This document shows, piece after piece, positions 1,052 to 25,356 of a stretch of DNA of 25,821 bases. Below the pieces are notes generated by a model that saw only the letters and a list, made by a program, of their open reading frames with translations, did no database searches and was not told the DNA's origin. Position 1 is the first letter of the stretch; each line of letters begins with the position of its first letter. Position numbers and translations under genes: made by a program. Source of the DNA: Candidatus Enterousia sp. (GTDB lineage: Bacteria; Pseudomonadota; Alphaproteobacteria; Rs-D84); NCBI GenBank assembly GCA_045613785.1, contig JAZLBQ010000016.1:1-25821 (forward strand), read 5' to 3'.

Positions 1052-1636
1052 TTATTTTACCCCCTTTAATGGCATTGCATAAGTAATTTTATTACCAGAT
1101 CTATTTTTTTCAAGTTCTGCATTATAACGTTTGGCAACTGCACAACATCTTGCACAACTGCAACTTTCGAATTCTTCCCTGTGGCAGGTCCAGGAAGGAT
1201 TACCGTAATTCTTGCAGAAAGAACCGCTTTTATGAACGCAATTATAACAAACTGTTTCGCCCTTGTCCCCGTTCTGATACTGTTTATTAAATCTAACAAC
1301 TTTCATTGGCGGTTGAAACTCTGATTTCTTCACAGACCTTGCACGGCAATCAAGCCCCTTTTCATAACAGGCAGGGCACATCGGCAAGCCGTAATCATAT
1401 TCACAACCGCATTCAAGGCAGACCGCCCAAATATATTCATTTGGTCTTTTGCCCGTAACTCTAACAAGCAGGCTTTTCATAATTGCAATCTCTGGAAACC
1501 TGCCGTTATTGCTTTTGTTTAATTCCCGCAGGAAGTTTTCTTTTTGTTCTTCTTCCAACTTACCAAGATTTTCTGCAACCCATTTTTTCTGTTCATCGGA
1601 TGCAGTTCCAAATCTGCTTTCAAGTTCATTAATCAT
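1052..1636 (-). CDS. Cys-rich putative Zn-binding protein of unknown function
   Basis: 194 aa with CLECGC, CPAC, CYNC and CSCARCC clusters. Overlaps the stop of the initiator gene. Confidence 0.7.
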   Translation of the reverse strand: MINELESRFGTASDEQKKWVAENLGKLEEEQKENFLRELNKSNNGRFPEIAIMKSLLVRVTGKRPNEYIWAVCLECGCEYDYGLPMCPACYEKGLDCRARSVKKSEFQPPMKVVRFNKQYQNGDKGETVCYNCVHKSGSFCKNYGNPSWTCHREEFESCSCARCCAVAKRYNAELEKNRSGNKITYAMPLKGVK

Positions 1637-3769: not shown

Positions 3770-4206
3770 TATTTCGCCCCCTTAATTTTTATAATTCTGC
3801 ATTCGGTTGCTTTTCCTTCTTCAACACATCTGGAAGAAGAAAGTGAATTAAAAACAACCTTGCCATCTTCAACCCCGACCCAATGCCCGTTATTGCCACG
3901 GCTGAATTTCACAATCGTTTTTTCTTTTATGTTTTTAATTGTTGTAATATTTTTCTTTTCAAAGCTTGCTATTTCTCGCCCTGTGATTCGTTTTATGCAC
4001 TCCGCCCAATAAACTGTGCATTCTTCATCAAGTGCGTGTTCTTCGATTAAATCAGATACAAGCATTATTGCTCCAATGTCTGACGGGTCCAATCCAAGCC
4101 ACCAGATCAACGTGAAAGCACAACACGCATAATCTTTAATTGATTTAAGCTTTGCATTCGGAAAATGCTTGTAAAGTTCTTCTGCCAAACTCTGCGGATT
4201 TTTCAT
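3769..4206 (-). CDS. Putative papain-fold Cys-peptidase endolysin (C39/DUF261-like)
   Basis: Candidate triad YACC / GHWV / FNSL; occupies the endolysin position upstream of the holin and spanins. Confidence 0.5.
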   Translation of the reverse strand: MKNPQSLAEELYKHFPNAKLKSIKDYACCAFTLIWWLGLDPSDIGAIMLVSDLIEEHALDEECTVYWAECIKRITGREIASFEKKNITTIKNIKEKTIVKFSRGNNGHWVGVEDGKVVFNSLSSSRCVEEGKATECRIIKIKGAK

Positions 4207-4236
4207 TTAAGCCCCTTGCGTTCGCTAACGCTCTCT

Positions 4237-4473
4237 CTATTTTATAAATGAAATTATAAGCCCAATTCCTTCTGTTATCAAACCAATAAGTAAAGCAATA
4301 AATTTTCCCATATATTTTTTTTCTGTTTCTGTTATTGCAAGTTTTATTTTTATATCAACACTTTCATTTATTTTCTTTGCGATTTCTTCGGGCATTCCCT
4401 TTATATCGTTTTTAATTTCTTTGATGTCGGATTCCATTTGTAGAACTTTGCTTTCAATAACTTCTGCATTCAT
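4237..4473 (-). CDS. Coiled-coil protein with C-terminal TM helix (XhlA/holin-associated type)
   Basis: Likely start MNAEVIESK at 4473 (RBS GGGGTGG); 78 aa. Confidence 0.6.
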   Translation of the reverse strand: MNAEVIESKVLQMESDIKEIKNDIKGMPEEIAKKINESVDIKIKLAITETEKKYMGKFIALLIGLITEGIGLIISFIK

Positions 4474-4551
4474 ATTTACCACCCCGCTATTGTTGCCAAT
4501 CTGCGATGCCCAACTTAAAATTTGACTTGTAAAGCCAATCCCCTTTTTTGA

Positions 4552-4580
4552 AGTATACACCTGATTTATTTTGTTTGCAA
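4552..4580 (-). promoter_or_regulatory. Promoter of the lysis cassette
   Basis: Minus strand TTGCAA-17 bp-TATACT, with GGTG directly before the -10. Confidence 0.6.
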
Positions 4581-4602
4581 ATGTGTAAAGTTATGTTATA
4601 AT
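4575..4602 (+). promoter_or_regulatory. Divergent plus-strand promoter
   Basis: TTGCAA-16 bp-TATAAT with an extended TGn -10; shares the palindromic -35 with the lysis promoter. Confidence 0.55.
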
Positions 4603-4643
4603 AAATTAGGTCAAGAAACCATCAAAAAGAACTCTCTCCAATT

Positions 4644-4667
4644 CCGCCCGATAACAAGGGCGGTTTT
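4644..4667 (+). terminator. Intrinsic terminator, plus strand
   Basis: CCGCCC-gataacaa-GGGCGG-TTTT. Confidence 0.55.
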
Positions 4668-4733
4668 CTATTGCTCTTAGCATTAGCCATTTGGTATACC
4701 TCTAGTTATTAGTATAAAAAAGTATACTGTCTA

Positions 4734-4768
4734 TAATATGCAATCTGTTACCTCAAATGCAGTGGCAG
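4734..4768 (+). repeat. Left 35-bp inverted repeat of the invertible tail cassette
   Basis: TAATATGCAATCTGTTACCTCAAATGCAGTGGCAG is the exact reverse complement of 5698-5732. Confidence 0.95.
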
Positions 4769-5295
4769 TTGCTATGCTTTTCAATCCAAAACTTCACATC
4801 ACCGATACTAGAGATAGTAATTTTGCGCCAGGTTATTATTTGGCAACTTATGGTGGTCAAACAGTTCAAGAATTTAAGAATACAAGCGTTATCAATACAC
4901 CTTTTAATACAGGCTCATTCTGTACACTGATTACTATGATTCCGTGGGCAGATTTATCGGGCGGTTTTCCAACACAATTTGCAATAAACACTTACATCAA
5001 TGGTGAAATAAAATATAGAGTTGCTTCAGATGCAAATAATTGGGGTGCTTGGGCAAAAATTGTAAATCAAAATGATATATCTTCAGCAGTATTTACAGTA
5101 GATACTGCACGCCAAAAAATAAACAATGCTCAAAGTAAATTAATTTATCGTGGCAACAAATTAGGCACAATAGATATATATGATGAAACAGGAAGCGGTT
5201 TATCAATAGATTTTGATTTTGATAATGGACAGATAAGAGTTTATTCTGTAGTCAGTGGTGTCACAATGGGGCAAAAAACTGCATATCTTTCATAA
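4738..5295 (+). CDS. Silent alternative C-terminus of the tail-tip protein (tail fibre knob-like domain)
   Basis: The only credible plus-strand ORF. It has no RBS, begins within the inverted repeat, and DTRDSNFAP...PWADLSGG...Q.A...YR...WGAW resembles tail-fibre/pyocin knob domains. Confidence 0.75.
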   Translation: MQSVTSNAVAVAMLFNPKLHITDTRDSNFAPGYYLATYGGQTVQEFKNTSVINTPFNTGSFCTLITMIPWADLSGGFPTQFAINTYINGEIKYRVASDANNWGAWAKIVNQNDISSAVFTVDTARQKINNAQSKLIYRGNKLGTIDIYDETGSGLSIDFDFDNGQIRVYSVVSGVTMGQKTAYLS

Positions 5296-5341
5296 TTAAA
5301 TACCATTAATAAAAAAAATGTCCTTGCTATTGAAATAATAA

Positions 5342-7246
5342 TTATGCTATAAGCGTGTCGCAATACCAAACACCGTTTCTATAGCCAAATCTTTTTAGAC
5401 CAACGCCCGGGTGGAAATATATAAATGCAGACCAAAGTTTTGCATTTGTACCACCATAAGTGTACCCTAAAACCATAACGGTCATATTTGGATTTGCTAA
5501 ACCTATAAAAACTCTAAAACCGTGTTCAAAATAAGCGTTGTTATATAAATAATCAAACCATTCTTTGAAATAAATGCTATCATCAGTAGATTGTGACGGT
5601 AAATCTCCCCAAGAAATCAAAGGCAATCTGTATACCCAACTTAAATCATTTATATTGTATAACTGATTTAACATTTGTCCTAATGGAGTTATTGCCCCTG
5701 CCACTGCATTTGAGGTAACAGATTGCATATTACCGCTAGTGACTGTATCGACTGGCATAGCAGTACTGTTTGCAAGGGCGTCAGACGTTATCGGGGCATT
5801 GTTTCCTGCTTGAATTGTATTTGTAGGAGTTTCCGCAACGTTCACAATGTTTCCTGCTTCATCAACAGATATAATTGCAACATAAGTTCCCACATTCATC
5901 GTAAGATTGACTGCACCCGATTTTCCCGTTGTTAAAGTCAATTTTCCTGTTCCGCCTAACTGCTTGAACCAAACGTGGTAAGTTTTTGCTCCTGTCTTTT
6001 CATTATCGAGATAAAGGGTGAAGGTTGCGTTTGTTCCGACTGTTCCCACAAATCCGATTGTATTATACGTAACATCAGCTTTAGGCATTGTGGTATCTGT
6101 CGGGATTGTGTACCACCTTACAGAGTCTGTTGAGGTTGCTTTTTCACTTGCTTTCTGAATCTGTCGCAACATCAACTGTAACTGTTCTGCTAGGTTGTTC
6201 TGTGGCTTTCCGAAACTGAATTGAATGTCATAACTTCCCCAAGCCCAATGCTCTGTTACGGACAATATTTGAGCAACTGCGGATTTTCCCGAAAAAGCAA
6301 CCGTAATTATATCGCCTACATCGTATTGCTCTCTGAAAATATAAGGACACTTTGCAAGTCCATTTCCTGCCATTGTCAACGTCTGTCCATACTGTGAAAG
6401 CATAGACAAGGCTTCTGCTTCATACTCATTTTCAGTTGTCATTGAAGATTGATTATCCCAAGATTCAAACCTGTCAAATCCGCTCGGGCTTCCGTTTTCA
6501 CCTTCGTAAATGTCACGGTCATCATTTTGACCCTTTCCGCCAATGTAGATGGCATTACTGAAACTTTCTGAACTGTCGGAAAACTCACCGTTTGCAAGGC
6601 TTTCATAATTCGTATCAAATCTAACTGTCTGCGACAAATTATTTCCTGCATAAACTTCTAAAGTTAAAGAACCGTTAAAGGCAATCCGCCAACCGATTTC
6701 TGATTGTGTCGCTATCGTTTTGCAGACTTCATACAGATTTGTGAACTGCTCTGAAACGGAATAAACCTTGCCAATTGCGGATTCTGTCGCAGGAATAACA
6801 TTATTAATCGGCAACTGTCTTTTTGCTTCTGCACCGCTTCCACATTGGTCTTTAATCAGATTACGCAAACACAGTTCACCCTTTGCGGTCATTACCCAAA
6901 GCCCGTTAGAGTTCATGTTTTTTATAACTCTGCGTTTCAAAATATACCTTGCGTCATATCCTGTAATTGTTCGAACCTGCGAGCCTTTGCCATCTTGACC
7001 TATGGGATCTTGAATTGAATATATTTCCCCGAAGTCATAAGGATTGTTTCCAAACTGAACGAATAAGCCACGCTGAAATAACTGCGAGTTAGGAATATTA
7101 TAATTTATTGTTATCGTGAAAACTCCTGCACTGTATAAATTATGTTCAAAACTCACTTCTGCATAATCGTCAATTATGGCTTGTAGGACAAATTCACTGC
7201 TTGAGTAAGAATATAATTTTAACTGCGGTTTTTCTTTATAACTCAT
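5342..7246 (-). CDS. Tail-tip/baseplate hub protein (ReqiPepy6 Gp37-like) with variable receptor-binding C-terminus
   Basis: Likely start MSYKEKPQ at 7246 (RBS GAGGGG). Motifs ITGYD..ILKRR, AIYIGGKGQ..DR, GFDRFE and YDVGDIITV; position downstream of Dit. Confidence 0.8.
   Translation of the reverse strand: MSYKEKPQLKLYSYSSSEFVLQAIIDDYAEVSFEHNLYSAGVFTITINYNIPNSQLFQRGLFVQFGNNPYDFGEIYSIQDPIGQDGKGSQVRTITGYDARYILKRRVIKNMNSNGLWVMTAKGELCLRNLIKDQCGSGAEAKRQLPINNVIPATESAIGKVYSVSEQFTNLYEVCKTIATQSEIGWRIAFNGSLTLEVYAGNNLSQTVRFDTNYESLANGEFSDSSESFSNAIYIGGKGQNDDRDIYEGENGSPSGFDRFESWDNQSSMTTENEYEAEALSMLSQYGQTLTMAGNGLAKCPYIFREQYDVGDIITVAFSGKSAVAQILSVTEHWAWGSYDIQFSFGKPQNNLAEQLQLMLRQIQKASEKATSTDSVRWYTIPTDTTMPKADVTYNTIGFVGTVGTNATFTLYLDNEKTGAKTYHVWFKQLGGTGKLTLTTGKSGAVNLTMNVGTYVAIISVDEAGNIVNVAETPTNTIQAGNNAPITSDALANSTAMPVDTVTSGNMQSVTSNAVAGAITPLGQMLNQLYNINDLSWVYRLPLISWGDLPSQSTDDSIYFKEWFDYLYNNAYFEHGFRVFIGLANPNMTVMVLGYTYGGTNAKLWSAFIYFHPGVGLKRFGYRNGVWYCDTLIA
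5698..5732 (-). repeat. Right 35-bp inverted repeat, inside the tail-tip gene
   Basis: Exact reverse complement of 4734-4768. Confidence 0.95.
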
Positions 7247-7340
7247 TTTCGTTCCCCTCATCATCAAGAATTTTATTTACGATTATCCAAGTTAAACCTG
7301 TTATTCCCGTAACAGTCAAGACTAAAGCTAAAATCAGCAT
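7236..7340 (-). CDS. Small single-pass membrane peptide (34 aa)
   Basis: MLILALVLTVTGITGLTWIIVNKILDDEGNENEL. RBS GGGGTG, starts 1 bp after the Dit stop and overlaps the next start, filling the gap exactly. Confidence 0.55.
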   Translation of the reverse strand: MLILALVLTVTGITGLTWIIVNKILDDEGNENEL

Positions 7341-7341
7341 T

Positions 7342-9855
7342 TTACACCCCGATATATTTCTGACGATAAGTAATTCTACATCTTAAACTTCCGTGACTTC
7401 GCAACACTCTAAAATAATTGGTCCCTTTTAATATGTTTAAATTCATATCAGAATTAGCACTTATATTATTTATAAGGTTTTCTGTTTCTGTAAAAGTAGA
7501 AAGTAAAACCACCCCATATTGTCCAATTATTACAAATATGTTTAATTTTTCAGAATAATCTAAACTATATATATTTTGTGATACACCACTGCTTCTGGTA
7601 GTCCAATTAACTCCATCACTACTAGTTAATGTTATACCGCTTTCGCCAACTATTAAAAATAGATTTAATTCTCTTGAATATGAAATATCAGAAAGCCTTC
7701 GTGTTGTCCCACTGTTTTCATCATTCCAATCTATTCCATTACTACTTGTTAGAATAGTACCATCTGCACCCGTTGCTACAAGTAATGTTAGATTTTCTGC
7801 ACAGATTATTCCAGATAAATTTTTTATAACCCCACTGTTTTGTGATACCCAATCTACCCCATTACTACTTGTAATTATTGTGCCATTATAGCCAACTACT
7901 ACAAAAAGATTTAATATTTTTGACCATATTATCTTAGATAACTGCACCGTTGTCCCACTATTTTCAATATTCCAATCTATTCCATTACTACTTGTAACTA
8001 TTTTCCCATTTGCACTTATAACTGCAAAAAGGTTTAATTCTTCTGAATAAGTTATAGATTTTAAAGTCAATGAAAGCAATTGACTCGTAGTTCTATCAAT
8101 CCAATCTGTCCCGTTGTTGCTTGTGAGTATTGTACCTGTATCACCAACGGCAACAAAAAGGTTTAATTCTTCTGAATAGGCTATACCATAAATGCTTGCT
8201 ATAACTCCACTGTTTTGTTCCACCCAATCTACTCCATTACTGCTTGTATTAATGAGTCCGTCCAATCCTACTGCTACAAACATATTAAACCTTGTTGAAA
8301 AGATTACATCTAAATAAGTTGCCAATTTCACTCTATTAATCCATTCTATACCATTATTACTTGTCAAAATCCGTCCGCTTATATCACCTGTTACAAATAA
8401 ATTTAATTCTTCTGAATAGACTATACATCCTAGCGTAGTATCAGTTCCACTATTTCTACTAATCCAATTCATTCCATCACCACTTGTTACAATTGTTCCA
8501 CTATTGCCAACTGCTACAAAAAGGCTTAATTTTTCTGAATATGTTATAGAGTTCAAAACATTTGGCACATTTCCGATTATTCTACTCCAATTAATTCCAT
8601 CTGGACTAGTTATAATACTTCCGCTCATACCGCCCGTAGATGTAACCACAACAAATAAATTTAGGTCATTTGAATAGGTTATATCCTGTAATTGGTCTGA
8701 TACACCACTACTTCGTAATGTCCAATTTACCCCATCAGAACTTGTTGTGACAGTTCCGCTTTCACCTACTGCCACAAATAAATTTAATTCACTTGAATAG
8801 ATTACAGAATTTAAAGTAAGGGAAACACCGCTTGTTCTTCGAACCCAATCTACTCCATTATCACTTGTAATTATTATGCCATCAATTCCAACGGCAACAA
8901 AAATATCTAATTCTTCTGAATAAGTCGTTGCACTTAAATACGCAGTAGTCCCACTGTTTCTTGTAACCCAATCAATTCCATTATTACTCGTTATAATTGT
9001 ACCATTATTGCCAACTGCTACAAATAACTCCAATTCTTCCGAATAAGTTATGCCGTATAAATTATTTGCAACTCCACTGTTTTGGAAGGTCCAACTAATA
9101 CCGTCATAAGATTTAAAAATTATCTCACGGGAAACACCAACAAATATACCTTTATTACTAGCATAACACACCGAATTCATTCTGCCATTATATTTTGTCA
9201 TATTGAAATTTAAAATTTCAGACACAACTTTTTTTTGACCATTATTTGTATCTATTAATAAATTATTTTCTAAAGTTCCATTATAAGCTATTTCTTTTGG
9301 TGTATTTAACCGTTGTATCAATGGGTTAGTTGTTCCTTCTCCATAAAAATCTATTTTCATTTGACAAGGCACATCCCCATCATTTTCTATAGTTGCAATT
9401 TTATTTGCGTCAATGTATATTTCTGTTTCTTCTAAATCTTCCCAATAAGGTGAAGGGCAAGAGAAAGCGACAGACGCTTTTAGAGTTCCTGCATCATTAC
9501 TGTTTTTATTTTCAAATAACGGAATCTGTGGTACGGCTTTAATCTGTCGGCTCAAATAATCATTAGTGTAAATTAAAGTTCCTTCCCCAAGTTTCGGATT
9601 TAATACAGAAATCAATTCACGCTTTTTCTGGTAACGCAATTCAAGGTTGTTTCCGTCATAGATGGCAACAGTTACACTGATTTCCCTCTGCTCCATTAAG
9701 GCATCGAGAAAAACACCGCCATCCTCAAACGGCACTTGTTGTGTCTGGATATTCAAACCTGTATTTGACAGACCTTCCCAATTTGTGATTCCAAAATTGC
9801 CCGCAGTCATATCTATCTGTGTTCCATTACCATTTATAAAAACAAGTTTCTGCAT
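7342..9855 (-). CDS. Distal tail protein (Dit) with inserted Asp-box/BNR beta-propeller repeats
   Basis: Sipho-tail-like ends (FSCPSPYWED, IENDGDVPC, TNPLI, LKGTNYFR, ITYRQKYIGV) flank 13 S-x-[DN]-G-x-x-W repeats of about 42 aa. Confidence 0.85.
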   Translation of the reverse strand: MQKLVFINGNGTQIDMTAGNFGITNWEGLSNTGLNIQTQQVPFEDGGVFLDALMEQREISVTVAIYDGNNLELRYQKKRELISVLNPKLGEGTLIYTNDYLSRQIKAVPQIPLFENKNSNDAGTLKASVAFSCPSPYWEDLEETEIYIDANKIATIENDGDVPCQMKIDFYGEGTTNPLIQRLNTPKEIAYNGTLENNLLIDTNNGQKKVVSEILNFNMTKYNGRMNSVCYASNKGIFVGVSREIIFKSYDGISWTFQNSGVANNLYGITYSEELELFVAVGNNGTIITSNNGIDWVTRNSGTTAYLSATTYSEELDIFVAVGIDGIIITSDNGVDWVRRTSGVSLTLNSVIYSSELNLFVAVGESGTVTTSSDGVNWTLRSSGVSDQLQDITYSNDLNLFVVVTSTGGMSGSIITSPDGINWSRIIGNVPNVLNSITYSEKLSLFVAVGNSGTIVTSGDGMNWISRNSGTDTTLGCIVYSEELNLFVTGDISGRILTSNNGIEWINRVKLATYLDVIFSTRFNMFVAVGLDGLINTSSNGVDWVEQNSGVIASIYGIAYSEELNLFVAVGDTGTILTSNNGTDWIDRTTSQLLSLTLKSITYSEELNLFAVISANGKIVTSSNGIDWNIENSGTTVQLSKIIWSKILNLFVVVGYNGTIITSSNGVDWVSQNSGVIKNLSGIICAENLTLLVATGADGTILTSSNGIDWNDENSGTTRRLSDISYSRELNLFLIVGESGITLTSSDGVNWTTRSSGVSQNIYSLDYSEKLNIFVIIGQYGVVLLSTFTETENLINNISANSDMNLNILKGTNYFRVLRSHGSLRCRITYRQKYIGV

Positions 9856-9866
9856 ATCTTCACCCC

Positions 9867-12800
9867 TTACAAAATTCCATTTATTGCCATCTGTCTGTTA
9901 TAAGCTTTAAATTGTTGCATCATACTAAATGCGGTTGTGTCTTGCAGATTGTTGAAAGTTACATTGAAATTATTAGTCTTTCCGCCCATATTTTCAAGGG
10001 CTTTGTTTGTGCTTCTGTTATTCAAAACCTGCTCACCACCTCTGAACTTTACTAATTCGGGTCCTGCTTCACCAACAATTGCCAAGCCCGCAGGTGCATT
10101 ATTTGTTCCTTTCGCCCACCATCCAAGAGCATGACCAATAGTAGAAACTCCACCTGTTAAAAGTGCCAATCCTGCATCACCCGCTTGTGAACCTGTTTGT
10201 GTTCCACTTGTCTCTCTAGTTAATGCAGCAAGCCCGCCCGAAAATATTGACCCGATTGCATTGCCAAGTGCGGTTAAAACATCCATCCAAAATTCAAAAG
10301 TCATAACCTTTTTTAATAAAGTAGAAAGTCCTTCTGAAAAAGCCTTGAACATTCCACCCGTATCACTTGAAAATATTTTGAGTATTTCACTTGCCAATCT
10401 GTTTATTATTTCTGGCAGTTTCGGAATAATAGCATTAATTACCGCAAAAATTAATTTAATTAGCGACTCTGCAATCTTTGGCACTAATTCTATTAATGCG
10501 TCAATTATTCCCATTATCGAGTCTGTTATTGAGTCAATAAATTCTTCATTAGTAAGAGCCACCGCCAATGCGTCTATAATTACTTTAATAACCCGCAGAA
10601 TAGCTCTAATCAATTTCGGTAGTGTTTTATTTGCACTTGTCATTGATTTTGCAAGGAAATCGCCAATTTTTTCAACCTGTGTTTCTAACATAGATACAAC
10701 TTTATCGAGATTTCTTATTATCAAATCTTCAAGAGTTGTCTGAATTGTTAAAATTACATTTAGTAAAGTATTCAAGCCATCATCAGTTTCAACCCATTCG
10801 CACAAACCATCTATCGCACCGTCAACCAAATCCACCATAATTGAAAGTAAATCTTCTGTAATCTGTGGAAGTGCAATTCCTATGCTATGCAACATATTAT
10901 AGACAACATCTTTTATTGCATCAGCGTTAATAATGTTCTTTAAGCTTGCAAATAATGTACCGATACTCTGCAAAACGCTCTGAACAAAATAAGGAAGTTG
11001 TGGAAGTGTTTCCACAAAAAATGTCAAAACAGAATCTTCAAATTCAAGTAAAGTGTCGAGTGCATCACTTATAGAAAGAGCAAAAAGTTTTTTGAAAATA
11101 TTTATTGTAGTATCTACGACTGATTTTATTGTAGACGCAATTTTTTTAACAACTGCAACAACTTTATTTGCATACTGTTTTGCATATTCAAGCATTAATG
11201 CCAATTTGCTTTTTTCGTCTTTTTCTTCTTCTTCGTTCTTTTTCTTTTTGTAATTTCCTAATTCGTCATAAATCTTTTTTTCTTCGTTTGCATAATATTC
11301 ATTTATCGCGTTTATTTCTTCGCCATTGCCGTTTGCGTTTTCTAATGCTTTTTCTTTTTCTTCTTCGAGTCTTTGTAATTTGAGTTCTAATAACTTTTCA
11401 TTATAATAACGTTCGATTGAGTATGTTTCTTCCCCCATCGCTTCTGCAAGGGAAACTGCTCTTTCTTTTTCCGTTTCAAGCATTTCTATTCTTTGTTCAA
11501 GAAGTTTTTCTTGCCACTCTGAATTTTCTTCTGTCTTTCCCAACTGCTCCAAAATCTGATTAATTATTGCCATCTGGTCTTTGTAATACTGATTATTTTC
11601 TGTAATTTTTCCGCCCGACTCACTCATAATATCTACAAGTTTTTCTTGATAGAATTTTAGTCGTTCTTCATTTGATACGGCTTCACCTGTTACCTTCTTA
11701 ATGTTTGCCCATCTTTTTTCCTGTTCGGCAATCATTTTAAGATATTTTTCTTTTAAGTCATTAATCAGCTTTTCTTCTTCTGCCTGTGCTTCTGCTTCCG
11801 CGCGGGCTTTCTTTTCAGCTTCGTTTTCTTTGCGTCTTTTATTGAGTTCTTCGGAAATTGTCTTTAATTGAGCATTGAGGTCTTTTATTTGGGCTTTATA
11901 TGCCTGTGCAGTTTCATCCGTTGCTTCATCAATATATTTTCCGTATAACTGAATATACTGTGAGTAGTTTCTTGTAATTTCCTGTTGCTTATGTAAAACT
12001 TCGGAGAATGCCCTTTCAAGGTTTTCTGTCGTTGCATCAACATTGACTGTTTCATCCTTGAAAACATCCGCCATTGCTTCTTTCAAACCTTTGGCTTTTG
12101 TTATAGCATTGTTTAAGTTTGTTACAACTTCTGTAAAATATTTACGCATCGGGGCTAATGCTTTTTCAAAAACACTTCCTAGATTTTCTTTCAAATCCCC
12201 AAGTGCATTTTTTAACTGTTTTGCAGAATCTGCGGTTGCACTTGCCAAGCCTTTATATTTATTACCAAGTATTTCTACGGCTTTACCGCTTTTTAGTTCT
12301 TCTTCTGTAAGGTTTTTTAATTCTGAATTCTGTTGTCCTAATCGACCTATATTGCCATTAAGTGTTGCATTTAATTGTTGTATTGCAGTTTCAAAAGATA
12401 TTGTTCCTGTTGCACTCATATCGGTTGCAACTCTGATAATATCCATTGTTTCTGCTTCTGTTCTTCCTGTGGCAATTAATTGTGCCATCATCGGCAGGAA
12501 CTGTTCATCACCAATTTCTGAAACTCTCTGCATCTCTGACGCAAATTGTTTCAATCCTTTTATAGAACTTCCGTCTAAATAAGGATTATTTTTTACTGCG
12601 GTTTCAAGAGCAATTTCTGCCTTATATTGATTTCTGTATGCTTCTGCACATTCATTTACAGTTTTTGAAATTGCTTGAAAAGCTTTTTTTGCAGTTCCAA
12701 GAATTGCAGTTACACCGCCCGTTGCAAGTCCGACCGCACCTAATGCACCAACAAGCCCGCTTTTTCCAAGTCCTTGAATTACACCCGAAACGGATTTTGA

Positions 12801-23876: not shown

Positions 23877-24235
23877 TTCATTAATTCTTCAAAAGCCTGT
23901 AATCTTTCTTCGGTTGTCTGTAATTCTGTTTTTATTTCTCCAGAAAGATTCAATTTGCTTCCTTCGGTTGCTTCCCTTACTTCACGCAACATTGCCACGC
24001 TTGAACTATCGCCCCTTGCGATAATCTTTTTCATACATTCATTGACAAGCTCTGCACCTGTCAATTTTCTTTCTTTATCGCCTTGCCTTACGTTGTATTC
24101 TTTTCCAAGAAACTCTGCATAAATCTGCGACATCAATTTTCTTTTTTCTGTGTTTTCCTTTCGCTTTTGTACTGATTTCATCTGCATTTTTTTTGCTTCG
24201 TCTGTTGTGGGTATTCTTAAATTCTGCTCATTCAT
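23873..24235 (-). CDS. Probable terminase small subunit
   Basis: 120-aa helical protein overlapping the terL start; NEQNL..PT..EA N-terminus. Confidence 0.6.
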   Translation of the reverse strand: MNEQNLRIPTTDEAKKMQMKSVQKRKENTEKRKLMSQIYAEFLGKEYNVRQGDKERKLTGAELVNECMKKIIARGDSSSVAMLREVREATEGSKLNLSGEIKTELQTTEERLQAFEELMK

Positions 24236-25356
24236 TTCTTCCCCCTTTTTCGTGCAATATTCGTGCTACTTTCTACTTTTTCATAACCTTTGCCGATATA
24301 TTGAAAACTATATGTATTACGTTGTTTAGAACATTGTTTTGCAGTAATACTATTTTTACCACACATTAAATGCCCTGTGTGAATACACTTGAAATTCTTA
24401 TTCTTCATAACAGTTCTTACAAAACCCTTTAAGCTTGTAATTAATGAAAAATAGGTTATATCAGTGTTTTTCATTACATATTCACCAAGCCAATTAATCA
24501 TATATTGACCGATTCCTAATCCTTGATAATCTGGCATTACAACAATTCTGTGATAAATCCCCATTTTTCTATGGCTATTACAAGGAAAGTGTATATAGCT
24601 ACAGAATCCAACAGGCTTTCCGCTTTCTGTAAAAACTGTGAATTCTTTTGCATTTTTATTAAAAGAATGGCTCAAATAGTGATACTTGCTAAAATATTTC
24701 CAATATCCTTTTGTTTCTCTGATGTTGAGTTTAATTTTTTTTCGCCGATGTAACCCCCTTGTAATTTTGAATTCCATTGTATCTGTATAAAAAATCCAAT
24801 CGGGTTCAAGCCATTCTATTACATCAAAATGGCAGGTAATTGCTATAAATTTCTTATTTCTTTTTCTTACTGTTTTTTGAATAGCAAGGCTTCCAAACTG
24901 TGCAACTTCTCTGTCTATAACTGATGTATATTCATCAAATGCAATTATTTCTTTATTCTGCAATAAAGCCCTTGCCAGATCCACACGCATTTTTTCACCG
25001 TTTGATAATACATTATAGGGTTTAATCCAACTCTTTGGTGTTGAGAATCCTACTGCATTTAATGTCTTTATTATATCTTCATAGGATAAACCCTTTTCAA
25101 AATCATCTATTACAGAATCTTTTGAATATTTGAAATTACATATATAATCACCGAATAATTCTTTTGCTATTGTTGTTTTTCCTGTTCCAGATTTACCGAC
25201 AATTATTCCAATATTCCATTCATCTGGTAAATCAAAAGAACCTGTGAATTCTTCTTTGATTAAATCTTCCTGTAAATCGAATTGGTCATAAATTTGCGAA
25301 ACCCTAAAAGATTTCTGTTTTATTTCATTTTCTTTTATAATGTTGAAACTTTGCAT
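24232..25356 (-). CDS. ABC-type ATPase fused to a GNAT acetyltransferase
   Basis: GKSGTGKTT, LSNGEKMR, IAFDEYTS and ITCH motifs, followed by FSKYHYL and RIVVMPDYQGLGIG (acetyl-CoA motif). Confidence 0.9.
   Translation of the reverse strand: MQSFNIIKENEIKQKSFRVSQIYDQFDLQEDLIKEEFTGSFDLPDEWNIGIIVGKSGTGKTTIAKELFGDYICNFKYSKDSVIDDFEKGLSYEDIIKTLNAVGFSTPKSWIKPYNVLSNGEKMRVDLARALLQNKEIIAFDEYTSVIDREVAQFGSLAIQKTVRKRNKKFIAITCHFDVIEWLEPDWIFYTDTMEFKITRGLHRRKKIKLNIRETKGYWKYFSKYHYLSHSFNKNAKEFTVFTESGKPVGFCSYIHFPCNSHRKMGIYHRIVVMPDYQGLGIGQYMINWLGEYVMKNTDITYFSLITSLKGFVRTVMKNKNFKCIHTGHLMCGKNSITAKQCSKQRNTYSFQYIGKGYEKVESSTNIARKRGKK

Follow-up and report, generated by a model that had tools for sequence, protein, structure and literature searches.

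An inverted in-frame linker repeat pairs an expressed and a silent tail-tip module in a siphophage contig: a candidate tip-exchange cassette

Contig JAZLBQ010000016.1 of the Candidatus Enterousia sp. assembly GCA_045613785.1 was analysed as one stretch of 25,821 bp with 37% GC, hereafter the window, which is the entire contig C16 of a 1.04-Mb bin of 26 contigs with a completeness rating of 96.5%. It carries the gene map of a siphophage, in which a tail-tip gene of the Sipho_Gp37 family runs into the first of two convergent tip modules, the second one being silent, and the DNA of the linker that heads both tips forms a perfect inverted repeat. This feature is recurrent and probably functional. 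Our leading interpretation, held tentatively and at somewhat less than an even chance, is that it represents a working tip-exchange cassette recombining by homology in the conserved linker. Both the flipping of the segment in the window phage and the enzyme that would carry it out are what we infer from the architecture and the comparisons described below.

The inverted repeat and the two convergent tips

An earlier, sequence-only reading of the window had drawn attention to perfect 35-bp inverted repeats that both encode NMQSVTSNAVA in frame, and base-by-base comparison together with the reading frames agrees with it. The perfect core occupies 4734-4768 and 5698-5732, and a repeat finder delimits arms of 42 nt (4734-4775 and 5691-5732) that are 93% complementary, with 915 nt between them. 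The motif is in frame both within the 641-amino-acid (aa) open reading frame (ORF) on the minus strand, at 5342-7267, and at the head of the plus-strand ORF at 4738-5295. Further copies of the 35-mer, which that reading had proposed looking for, were not found at up to 6 substitutions across the 1.04-Mb assembly, nor does any 16-mer of the core occur elsewhere in it, and blastn agrees; a perfect pair of 35-mers within 25.8 kb is beyond chance. When the 929 bp between the cores (4769-5697) are flipped in silico, the 641-aa ORF becomes a 698-aa ORF that ends in the complete alternative ORF, and the residues that follow the motif change from 118 aa at present to 175 aa, precisely the replacement of the C-terminus that had been predicted. 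The two tips have no BLASTP similarity to each other at E≤1e-3. Apart from a short spacer, the 929-bp interior is filled by the two convergent tips and contains no chaperone gene, another point on which the first reading was right. With the arms placed inside the tail gene and the alternative parts in opposite orientation, the cassette is built like a C-terminus switch of the Mu/P1 type, as originally suggested.

The switch concerns the tail-tip protein, as had been claimed. Over residues 24-354 this protein matches Sipho_Gp37 (PF14594) with an E-value of 2.6e-44 and 152.2 bits, the cut-off being 26.2, and it takes the Tal position, following the tape-measure protein and Dit. It also matches the minor tail protein family phrog_538 (2.5e-48), and its start is likely the ATG at 7246, which has a Shine-Dalgarno sequence. 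The constant part of about 520 aa has 964 protein matches at E≤1e-30; among the 120 of these that were listed, lengths range from 574 to 1116 aa at a query coverage of 76-92%, so that their ends differ, and the strict motif is present in 22 of the 120. In L010, L031, L033 and related loci the Gp37-like gene ends at about 500 aa and the linker and tip lie in a separate downstream ORF, in which 72-188 aa precede the motif; the constant part and the tip may thus be one protein or two.

The expressed tip has few relatives. L031 is the only one found (54-57% identical), there is no family match, and the structural model, built on a two-sequence alignment, is unusable at a predicted local distance difference test (pLDDT) score of 53.5. 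No relatives of this tip were found in IMG/VR, a search with residues 520-641 of the tail protein returned none, and positions 4000-7300 had no blastn match among the INPHARED phages.

The silent tip is a real protein module. Residues from about 19 to 110 form a widespread domain that is predicted to be a fibre 'knob', and residues 111-185 a second small domain. At E≤0.001 the tip has 720 relatives in a set of 1.84 billion representative proteins; they are 84 to 4047 aa long, and most are matched on residues from about 16 to 120. It also has a weak match to the 'host range and adsorption protein' family phrog_5499 (1.3e-6). In IMG/VR the silent tip has no relatives, and a comparison with longer proteins in a word-indexed collection gave none at E≤1e-10, a weak negative, since P0004, which HMMER finds, was also missed. 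The model of the silent tip, built on a 68-sequence alignment, reaches a pLDDT of 79 overall and above 90 over residues 20-110. In a wide structural search with this model, the top 10 matches were all phage fibre or tailspike chains, including AS12 gp42, phage K gp144, the phi812 baseplate, the R2 pyocin fibre, the Mu fibre 8ju3, T4 gp34 and the phi11 receptor-binding protein (RBP), at Z-scores of 5.8-8.1, middling by the scale of the tool; the Mu tail fibre aligns with the knob over 74 residues at Z 6.9, root-mean-square deviation 2.6 and 22% identity. The description of the alternative tip as knob-like has moderate support in the kind of protein found, and is qualified by these Z-scores and by a best Foldseek E-value of 6e-3. 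A G-rich Shine-Dalgarno sequence lies 5-15 nt before the ATG in about 20 of the 24 minus-strand genes checked, whereas none is found at the ATG at 4738, in keeping with the earlier remark that the plus-strand ORF has no ribosome-binding site.

Recurrence of the paired-tip layout

Searches with the tail protein returned 12 loci from IMG/VR, 23 from metagenomes and 1 from a genome, some contigs being stored twice. We examined 29 distinct loci including the window (WIN): 20 had a complete gene with at least 500 nt downstream, 6 were cut in the gene, and 3 had less than 500 nt downstream. Two convergent tips with inverted linker copies are present in 5 of the 20 usable loci (WIN, L003, L016, L028 and L036), and L005 has only the outer arm and a 32-aa stub of a silent tip. 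L003 and L036 share a silent tip and have different expressed tips. A 20-nt pattern derived from the arms was found at 16 IMG/VR loci, three of which hold two inverted copies, namely L065, which is the same contig as L003, L054 and L058; the last two show the paired layout in phages unrelated to the window lineage. The comparison of cassette content in relatives that the sequence-only reading had advised thus extends the layout to five loci of the lineage and to two unrelated phages. In every paired locus the distance from tip to tip, computed from the coordinates, is 0-46 nt (46 nt in the window, 0-44 nt in the others).

The linker is not confined to paired loci. Its motif lies inside the unrelated fibre proteins P0003, P0042, P0076 and P0078, ahead of various tips, and three further proteins (P0005, P0093 and P0109) begin exactly at the linker methionine, as a gene caller would render a silent cassette. 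To judge from these sequences, the linker is a conserved fibre-linker motif and a module junction in many phage fibre genes, and the repeat is not private to the window phage.

Use and selection of silent tips

The tips differ among phages, yet tips that are silent in one phage have expressed relatives in others. The silent tip of L028 is 69% identical at the amino acid level, over the full 93 aa, to the expressed tip of L017, and the expressed tip of L007 is 65% identical to the silent tip of L003 and 51% identical to that of L036. The silent tip of the window is 39% identical to the C-terminal knob of the Gp37-like protein P0197. Intact ORFs are retained by 7 of the 8 silent copies. For the silent tips of L003 and L036, compared over 172 codons, the nonsynonymous rate dN is 0.23 and the synonymous rate dS about 1.0, which gives a dN/dS of about 0.22, a rough ratio as dS is near saturation; the two have diverged under purifying selection. 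The suggestion that the cassette might be a locked relic is accordingly disfavoured by the recurrence of the layout, the intactness of the silent ORFs and the dN/dS of these two silent copies.

Shape of the repeat across loci

In the seven paired loci, the longest perfect identity between the arms is 35, 21, 15, 62, 21, 27 and 28 bp. The right-hand end of the identity differs between loci; in L028 the identity also reaches 30 bp further upstream into gene sequence, so that a copy of gene-internal DNA precedes the silent ATG. At the positions that distinguish the genomes, both arms of one genome have the same variants. Variable tract ends and homogenisation within genomes fit gene conversion or homologous recombination and not a fixed enzyme site. 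By eye, the 35-mer and the 21-nt core that is common to the arms show no dyad beyond two TGCA tetramers, and a Xer/dif-like site in the arms was considered and dropped, the likeness to the consensus being weak by eye. Immediately before the ATG, most silent arms have TATAAT.

Recombinases and homologous-recombination genes

No ORF of the window matches the recombinase families PF00239, PF00589 or PF07508, and the first reading was therefore correct in seeing no serine or tyrosine recombinase in the 26 kb. The search of the full assembly that it had proposed gave no match in the bin to PF00239, PF07508 or the IS110/Piv-type family PF01548, and only two hits to PF00589, one XerD-like and one XerC-like, on large chromosomal contigs, one of them adjoining lptG. 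Among the related virus records, PF00239 and PF00589 are absent from G001, G002-G005, G006, G007, G009, G010 and G011. The PF00239 record searches gave 0/5, 0/1, 0/4 and 0/1, with controls matched in 12 of 14 known genomes, and those for PF00589 gave 0/5, 0/1, 0/1 and 1/4, the single match being in G008, which is L058; the metagenome-only loci L016, L028, L036 and L024 were left out of these searches.

Some of these records inform on complete phages. G001 (46.3 kb, with terminal repeats) is rated complete and has no cassette, and G002, rated 100% complete, starts in the middle of the tail gene with no wrap-around and is uninformative on cassettes. G006 (14.3 kb, L075) and G011 (31.2 kb, L073 and L074) overlap at both ends, over 619 nt at 100% and over 9,438 nt at 99.9% identity, and thus make up a circular genome of about 35.4 kb, that of a phage with the L003 cassette whose aligned stretches are 68-90% identical to the window. 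Being circular and free of PF00239 and PF00589, this genome represents a complete cassette-bearing relative without a known site-specific recombinase. The same two families are absent from G007, an unrelated carrier rated 95% complete, which encodes a Sak4 annealing protein. A 'transposase' of G007 was considered as an invertase and rejected, as it has only a weak rve/DDE match (E 0.004). A diversity-generating retroelement was likewise rejected, because the repeats of the window are inverted and measure just 35 bp, and because its PHROG matches include no reverse transcriptase.

Genes for homologous recombination are part of the lineage, which has a full set consisting of Erf, a PD-(D/E)XK exonuclease, SSB, NinB and nucleases of the NinG/Rap, Holliday-junction-resolvase or EndoVII type. 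In G011, the stretch of about 9.3 kb that lies beyond the window encodes a ParB-methyltransferase, small unknown ORFs, an EndoVII-like nuclease, NinB, Erf, SSB, a methyltransferase and an exonuclease. Erf, SSB and NinB are found on bin contigs C17 and C23 and in G001 and G011, and such genes also on C6; those on C17, C23 and C6 come from at least two related phages and are not tied to the continuation of the window contig.

Genomic context

The features of the window are collected in Table 1. All of its real genes are on the minus strand.

Table 1. Features of the cassette and of its surroundings in the window
Feature	Position	Strand	Basis or remark
Outer arm, exact reverse complement of the inner arm, heads the silent cassette	4734..4768	+	encodes NMQSVTSNAVA
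Inner arm, inside the tail-tip gene, at the junction of constant part and expressed tip	5698..5732	-	encodes NMQSVTSNAVA
Silent tip, 185 codons from the motif ATG (175 after the motif)	4738..5295	+	open frame, without Shine-Dalgarno
Spacer between the two convergent stop codons, 46 nt	5296..5341	.	coordinates
Expressed tip, 118 aa and stop	5342..5697	-	tail of the 641-aa ORF
Sipho_Gp37 tail-tip gene, 641-aa ORF, Tal position	5342..7267	-	PF14594
Conserved non-coding flank beyond the outer arm	4669..4733	.	kept in L007 (without silent cassette) and L005 (stub)
Dit (distal tail protein), 837 aa, long repeat insertion	7342..9855	-	puts the switched gene in the Tal position
Tape-measure protein, 1008 aa	window	-	Pfam/PHROG matches
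Adaptors, major tail protein	window	-	Pfam/PHROG matches
Terminase, portal, protease, major head protein	window	-	Pfam/PHROG matches
ParB-like/methyltransferase gene	truncated at contig end	-	profile matches
Small lysis-region genes and DnaD-like replication protein	window	-	Pfam/PHROG matches
PD-(D/E)XK-type exonuclease, truncated at contig end	1..780	-	phrog_2139; one piece of the phage's homologous-recombination set

The flank that adjoins the outer arm is also present where the cassette is absent (L007) or reduced to a stub (L005), and thus probably serves to regulate the lysis genes and does not belong to the switch. In this region, the plus strand has a promoter-like site at 4575-4602 (TTGCAA, 16 nt, TG-extended TATAAT) and, at 4644-4672, shortly before the silent tip, a clean hairpin with a T-run that resembles a terminator; together (4575-4672) they could specify a small RNA, about 60 nt in length, that is antisense to the lysis-gene leader.

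The insertion in Dit is built from units of about 41 aa in tandem; at the DNA level, four copies with a period of 123 nt lie at 7603-8000, the latter being the upper edge of the scanned region. The insertion has a weak match to DUF6242, resembles a decoration of the beta-propeller type and may possibly be a second binding module of the baseplate. At 1052-1636 (-), between the DnaD-like gene and the exonuclease, a cysteine-rich protein of 194 aa with several CxxC pairs has no Pfam or PHROG family match, and ORFs of similar size stand at the equivalent position in C6, G001 and G011. At 24232-25356 (-), just upstream of the terminase region, a 374-aa protein with an ABC-ATPase-like part and an acetyltransferase-like C-terminus matches phrog_11143 (E 5.7e-88), a family that is also matched by a 226-aa ORF of G001.

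As to the source of the DNA, bin contigs C6, C9, C11, C13, C17, C20 and C23 are pieces of at least two related phages, and a second phage is signalled by an extra portal, an extra tape-measure protein, two Erf/SSB sets and an extra DnaD-exonuclease block. Contigs of at least two phages were thus binned in bulk with a small genome, which weakens the host assignment, and one relative was binned with a metagenome-assembled genome of the Eubacteriales. Candidatus Enterousia is therefore an unproven host of this phage.

Explanations for the cassette

Under the interpretation that we favour, the cassette would be a functional, two-state one for the receptor-binding tip of the tail protein. The constant 520-aa part ends in the linker (...SGN-MQSVTSNAV...), and a second tip with the same linker DNA lies tail-to-tail with the first and would be untranslated in place. 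A single crossover between the inverted linker copies would flip the 929-bp interior and fuse the silent tip in frame, giving the 698-aa protein. The crossover would occur by general homologous recombination on 15-62 bp of identity, and the likely agents would be the phage set of Erf, exonuclease, SSB, NinB and resolvase during replication, or the RecA of the host, with no dedicated invertase. The same linker would serve as a junction for trading tips between phages, and flipping would be rare per genome, yet frequent enough to keep both tips in large phage populations. A broader version, which we consider possible and rather doubtful, would make the 21 nt a universal 'recombination handle' in the linker (...GN-M(Q/H)SVTSNAV...) of unrelated gut and rumen phages, combining a programmed, reversible and recombinase-free (Erf, Sak4) host-range switch with the trading of tips as standard parts.

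Several observations weigh against switching by homology, foremost that no flipped state was seen. Of 16 public sequencing runs, 14 contained words of the window, none more than 0.11 of those sampled, and all are stored as Logan contigs. In four of them (X1, X2, X3 and X5), a comparison at 85% likeness yielded nothing longer than unitigs of 70-419 nt, and none of these short pieces bridges an arm. A few low-depth joints with sides of 20-36 nt were seen, among them 4733|5846 in X5, with its sides on opposite strands, and, in X2, X3 and X5, skips from arm to arm; such short low-depth joints often derive from other organisms; the evidence from public runs neither supports nor refutes flipping. 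The same tips in opposite states in near-identical phages were not found among the 120 listed proteins or in IMG/VR, where the silent tip of L003 occurs in just two known contigs, both in the silent state. Moreover, the three locus-to-locus matches between silent and expressed tips are all 51-69% identical, so that exchange between phages could explain them with no flipping within a genome. The contig of G011 ends 13 nt past the stop of the silent tip. This break lies within the segment, away from the arms, and speaks for a replacement of tips among co-existing strains rather than for inversion; what the contig lacks begins precisely with the expressed tip, spans the Gp37-like gene and ends within Dit, so that assembly fails at the hypervariable tail-tip region. 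The remaining points concern the arms and possible enzymes. A 21-nt core is common to both arms in 7 of 7 pairs from three lineages, synonymous positions included, with one mismatch in L016; in 6 of the 7 pairs the T before AAT-ATG is the first identical base; and the perfect runs of L003, L016 and L036 (15-21 bp) are short for homologous recombination to be efficient. L058 encodes a 433-aa tyrosine recombinase at 8909-10210 (+), 270 nt beyond the silent tip, and the small unannotated ORFs of the lineage may include a new kind of recombinase.

These last points would also fit site-specific inversion at the asymmetric 21-nt core by a recombinase acting in trans, such as a tyrosine or serine invertase of the host or of a co-resident prophage, Xer, or an unrecognised phage family. 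The constant core and the runs of 15-21 bp fit such an enzyme equally well, and homology and a site-specific enzyme would not be distinguishable from sequence alone. Short asymmetric repeats at the heads of cassettes are, moreover, typical of tyrosine-recombinase shufflons such as that of Rin with its 11-bp rix sites (PMC6109161), and the same paper proposes a trans-acting invertase for a second bifidophage locus without a flanking recombinase. We nonetheless regard this explanation as unlikely. The family searches described above left XerC- and XerD-like proteins as the only candidates in the bin and none in the window, the 35.4-kb relative or G007; the enzyme of L058 stands beside a divergent cI-like repressor in an apparently temperate phage and is probably its integrase; identity tracts of 35-62 bp with variable ends would be superfluous for a site-specific enzyme; and, as the 35-mer has no other copy in the bin, it does not belong to a set of host invertons, with the bin as host being unproven.

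A static archive, in which the reverse tip is stored or left over from an exchange and would be expressed only through recombination between co-infecting phages at the linker, has in our view the same rather low probability. It agrees with the linker being a general module junction in unrelated fibre proteins, with the differing lengths of the listed constant-part relatives, with L005, whose stub is a sign of decay, with L003 and L036 having one silent tip and different expressed tips, and with the break of G011 and the failure to see a flipped state in unitigs, listed proteins and IMG/VR. A copy that is never expressed should decay, however, yet nearly all silent copies are intact, lie directly beside the expressed tip, and in the one pair compared show a dN/dS well below one at a dS of about 1. 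In addition, the reverse orientation with an in-frame repeat, found in three lineages, is the sole arrangement in which one crossover swaps the tips with no loss of DNA.

That the plus-strand ORF is made in place as a small fibre or knob protein, starting at the motif ATG and using the 11 shared residues as an attachment peptide, appears very unlikely. The ATG is there, P0005, P0093 and P0109 are listed as starting at it, and most silent arms have the TATAAT before it; leaderless expression from this TATAAT was examined and rejected, because the spacing does not fit. On the other side, the Shine-Dalgarno sequence that most genes checked possess is missing, the DNA upstream of the silent ATG is wholly different among the WIN-type loci, L028, L054 and L058, the plus-strand hairpin at 4644-4672 stands just upstream, and a need at the protein level would not keep all synonymous sites equal between the arms of one genome. 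Least probable of all, and close to negligible, is an assembly artefact in which two strain variants were misjoined through the linker. Related contigs do end at or near the cassette (L003, L051, L016 and G011), a sign that this region is hard to assemble, whereas beyond the outer arm there is a unique conserved flank followed by lysis genes and not the reverse-complemented gene sequence of a fold-back error, the same layout is present in at least 7 contigs from different collections, and G006 and G011, which were stored separately, agree at 100% over the outer flank and the silent tip.

Should recombination by homology prove to be the mechanism, phages would be able to hedge their host range with a short in-frame repeat and general recombination alone, and the search space for such switches would widen beyond the neighbourhoods of recombinases. 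It would also explain the assembly breaks at the tail tip and the 'orphan' ORFs that start at the linker ATG in metagenomes. The linker offers a concrete junction motif that can be tested as a predictor of which receptor-binding modules of uncultured gut phages are exchangeable, and could be a natural splice point for tip-exchange studies in laboratory phage-host pairs.

Comparison with known systems

Invertible fibre switches are a textbook case of site-specific recombination, and a recombinase in the vicinity is the usual guide for inverton finders and annotators. The switches of Mu and P1 have dyad-symmetric sites of about 26 bp with a 2-bp core, an adjacent serine invertase, and chaperone genes in the segment. 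With the G segment and Gin of Mu and the C segment and Cin of P1 (and also e14 Pin and p15B Min), the window shares inverted repeats within a fibre gene, a constant N-terminus and two unrelated C-termini. In contrast to Mu and P1, it has no serine invertase of the Hin/Gin family beside the segment or in the lineage records searched, no dyad-symmetric 26-bp site was noticed by eye in its arms, and its segment, of 0.93 kb as compared with 3-4 kb, holds no chaperone gene (U/U' or tfa). Furthermore, the protein switched is a siphovirus protein in the Tal position and not a myovirus side fibre.

Conserved boxes in gp37 and gp38 of the T-even phages guide module exchange in fibre genes, and the pilE/pilS system of Neisseria and vlsE of Borrelia generate antigenic variation from silent cassettes. 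What these systems have in common with the proposed working of the window cassette is the use of short coding motifs as handles for homologous recombination, or unexpressed donors kept under selection. They differ from it in relying on exchange between genomes or on one-way conversion, with donors that are in the same sense or scattered, whereas the window has a single inverted donor that abuts the expression site and would need one reversible crossover. In full-text literature, no description of a cassette defined by this linker was found, and VTSNAV, VTSGAV, ITSNAI and VTSKAV occur in no relevant paper.

Another known system is the Rin shufflon of Bifidobacterium prophages (PMC6109161), which has an adjacent XerD-like tyrosine invertase, 11-bp rix sites, five cassettes and variants in reads. 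It likewise belongs to siphophages, with a constant N-terminus of the RBP, variable C-terminal cassettes that each begin with a short asymmetric repeat, and a mechanism proposed to be inversion; by comparison, the window has two cassettes, the identity spans 15-62 bp across loci, and neither a recombinase nor variants were seen. The nearest precedent, described in the same source, is a second inverted locus in the tRNA-Met bifidophages 689b-1 and Bb423phi2, in which a segment of about 500 bp is inverted at an 8-bp repeat with no flanking recombinase and both orientations were observed; there, the authors propose a trans-acting invertase and state that such a case was unreported in phages before (PMC6109161). 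As in the window, no recombinase flanks that segment, which contains a small gene together with the 3' end of a structural gene. The proteins concerned have no assigned function in that account, whereas the window has a 35-bp repeat in a tail tip, with a layout that recurs in many phages, a recombinase-free complete genome of a relative, and one orientation seen per phage.

Collectively, the design works like those of Mu, P1, Min and Rin but lacks the adjacent serine or tyrosine invertase that defines them. If it operates by homology, it would be an equivalent of Mu G inversion that needs no recombinase, and would parallel, in phages, the antigenic variation from silent cassettes.

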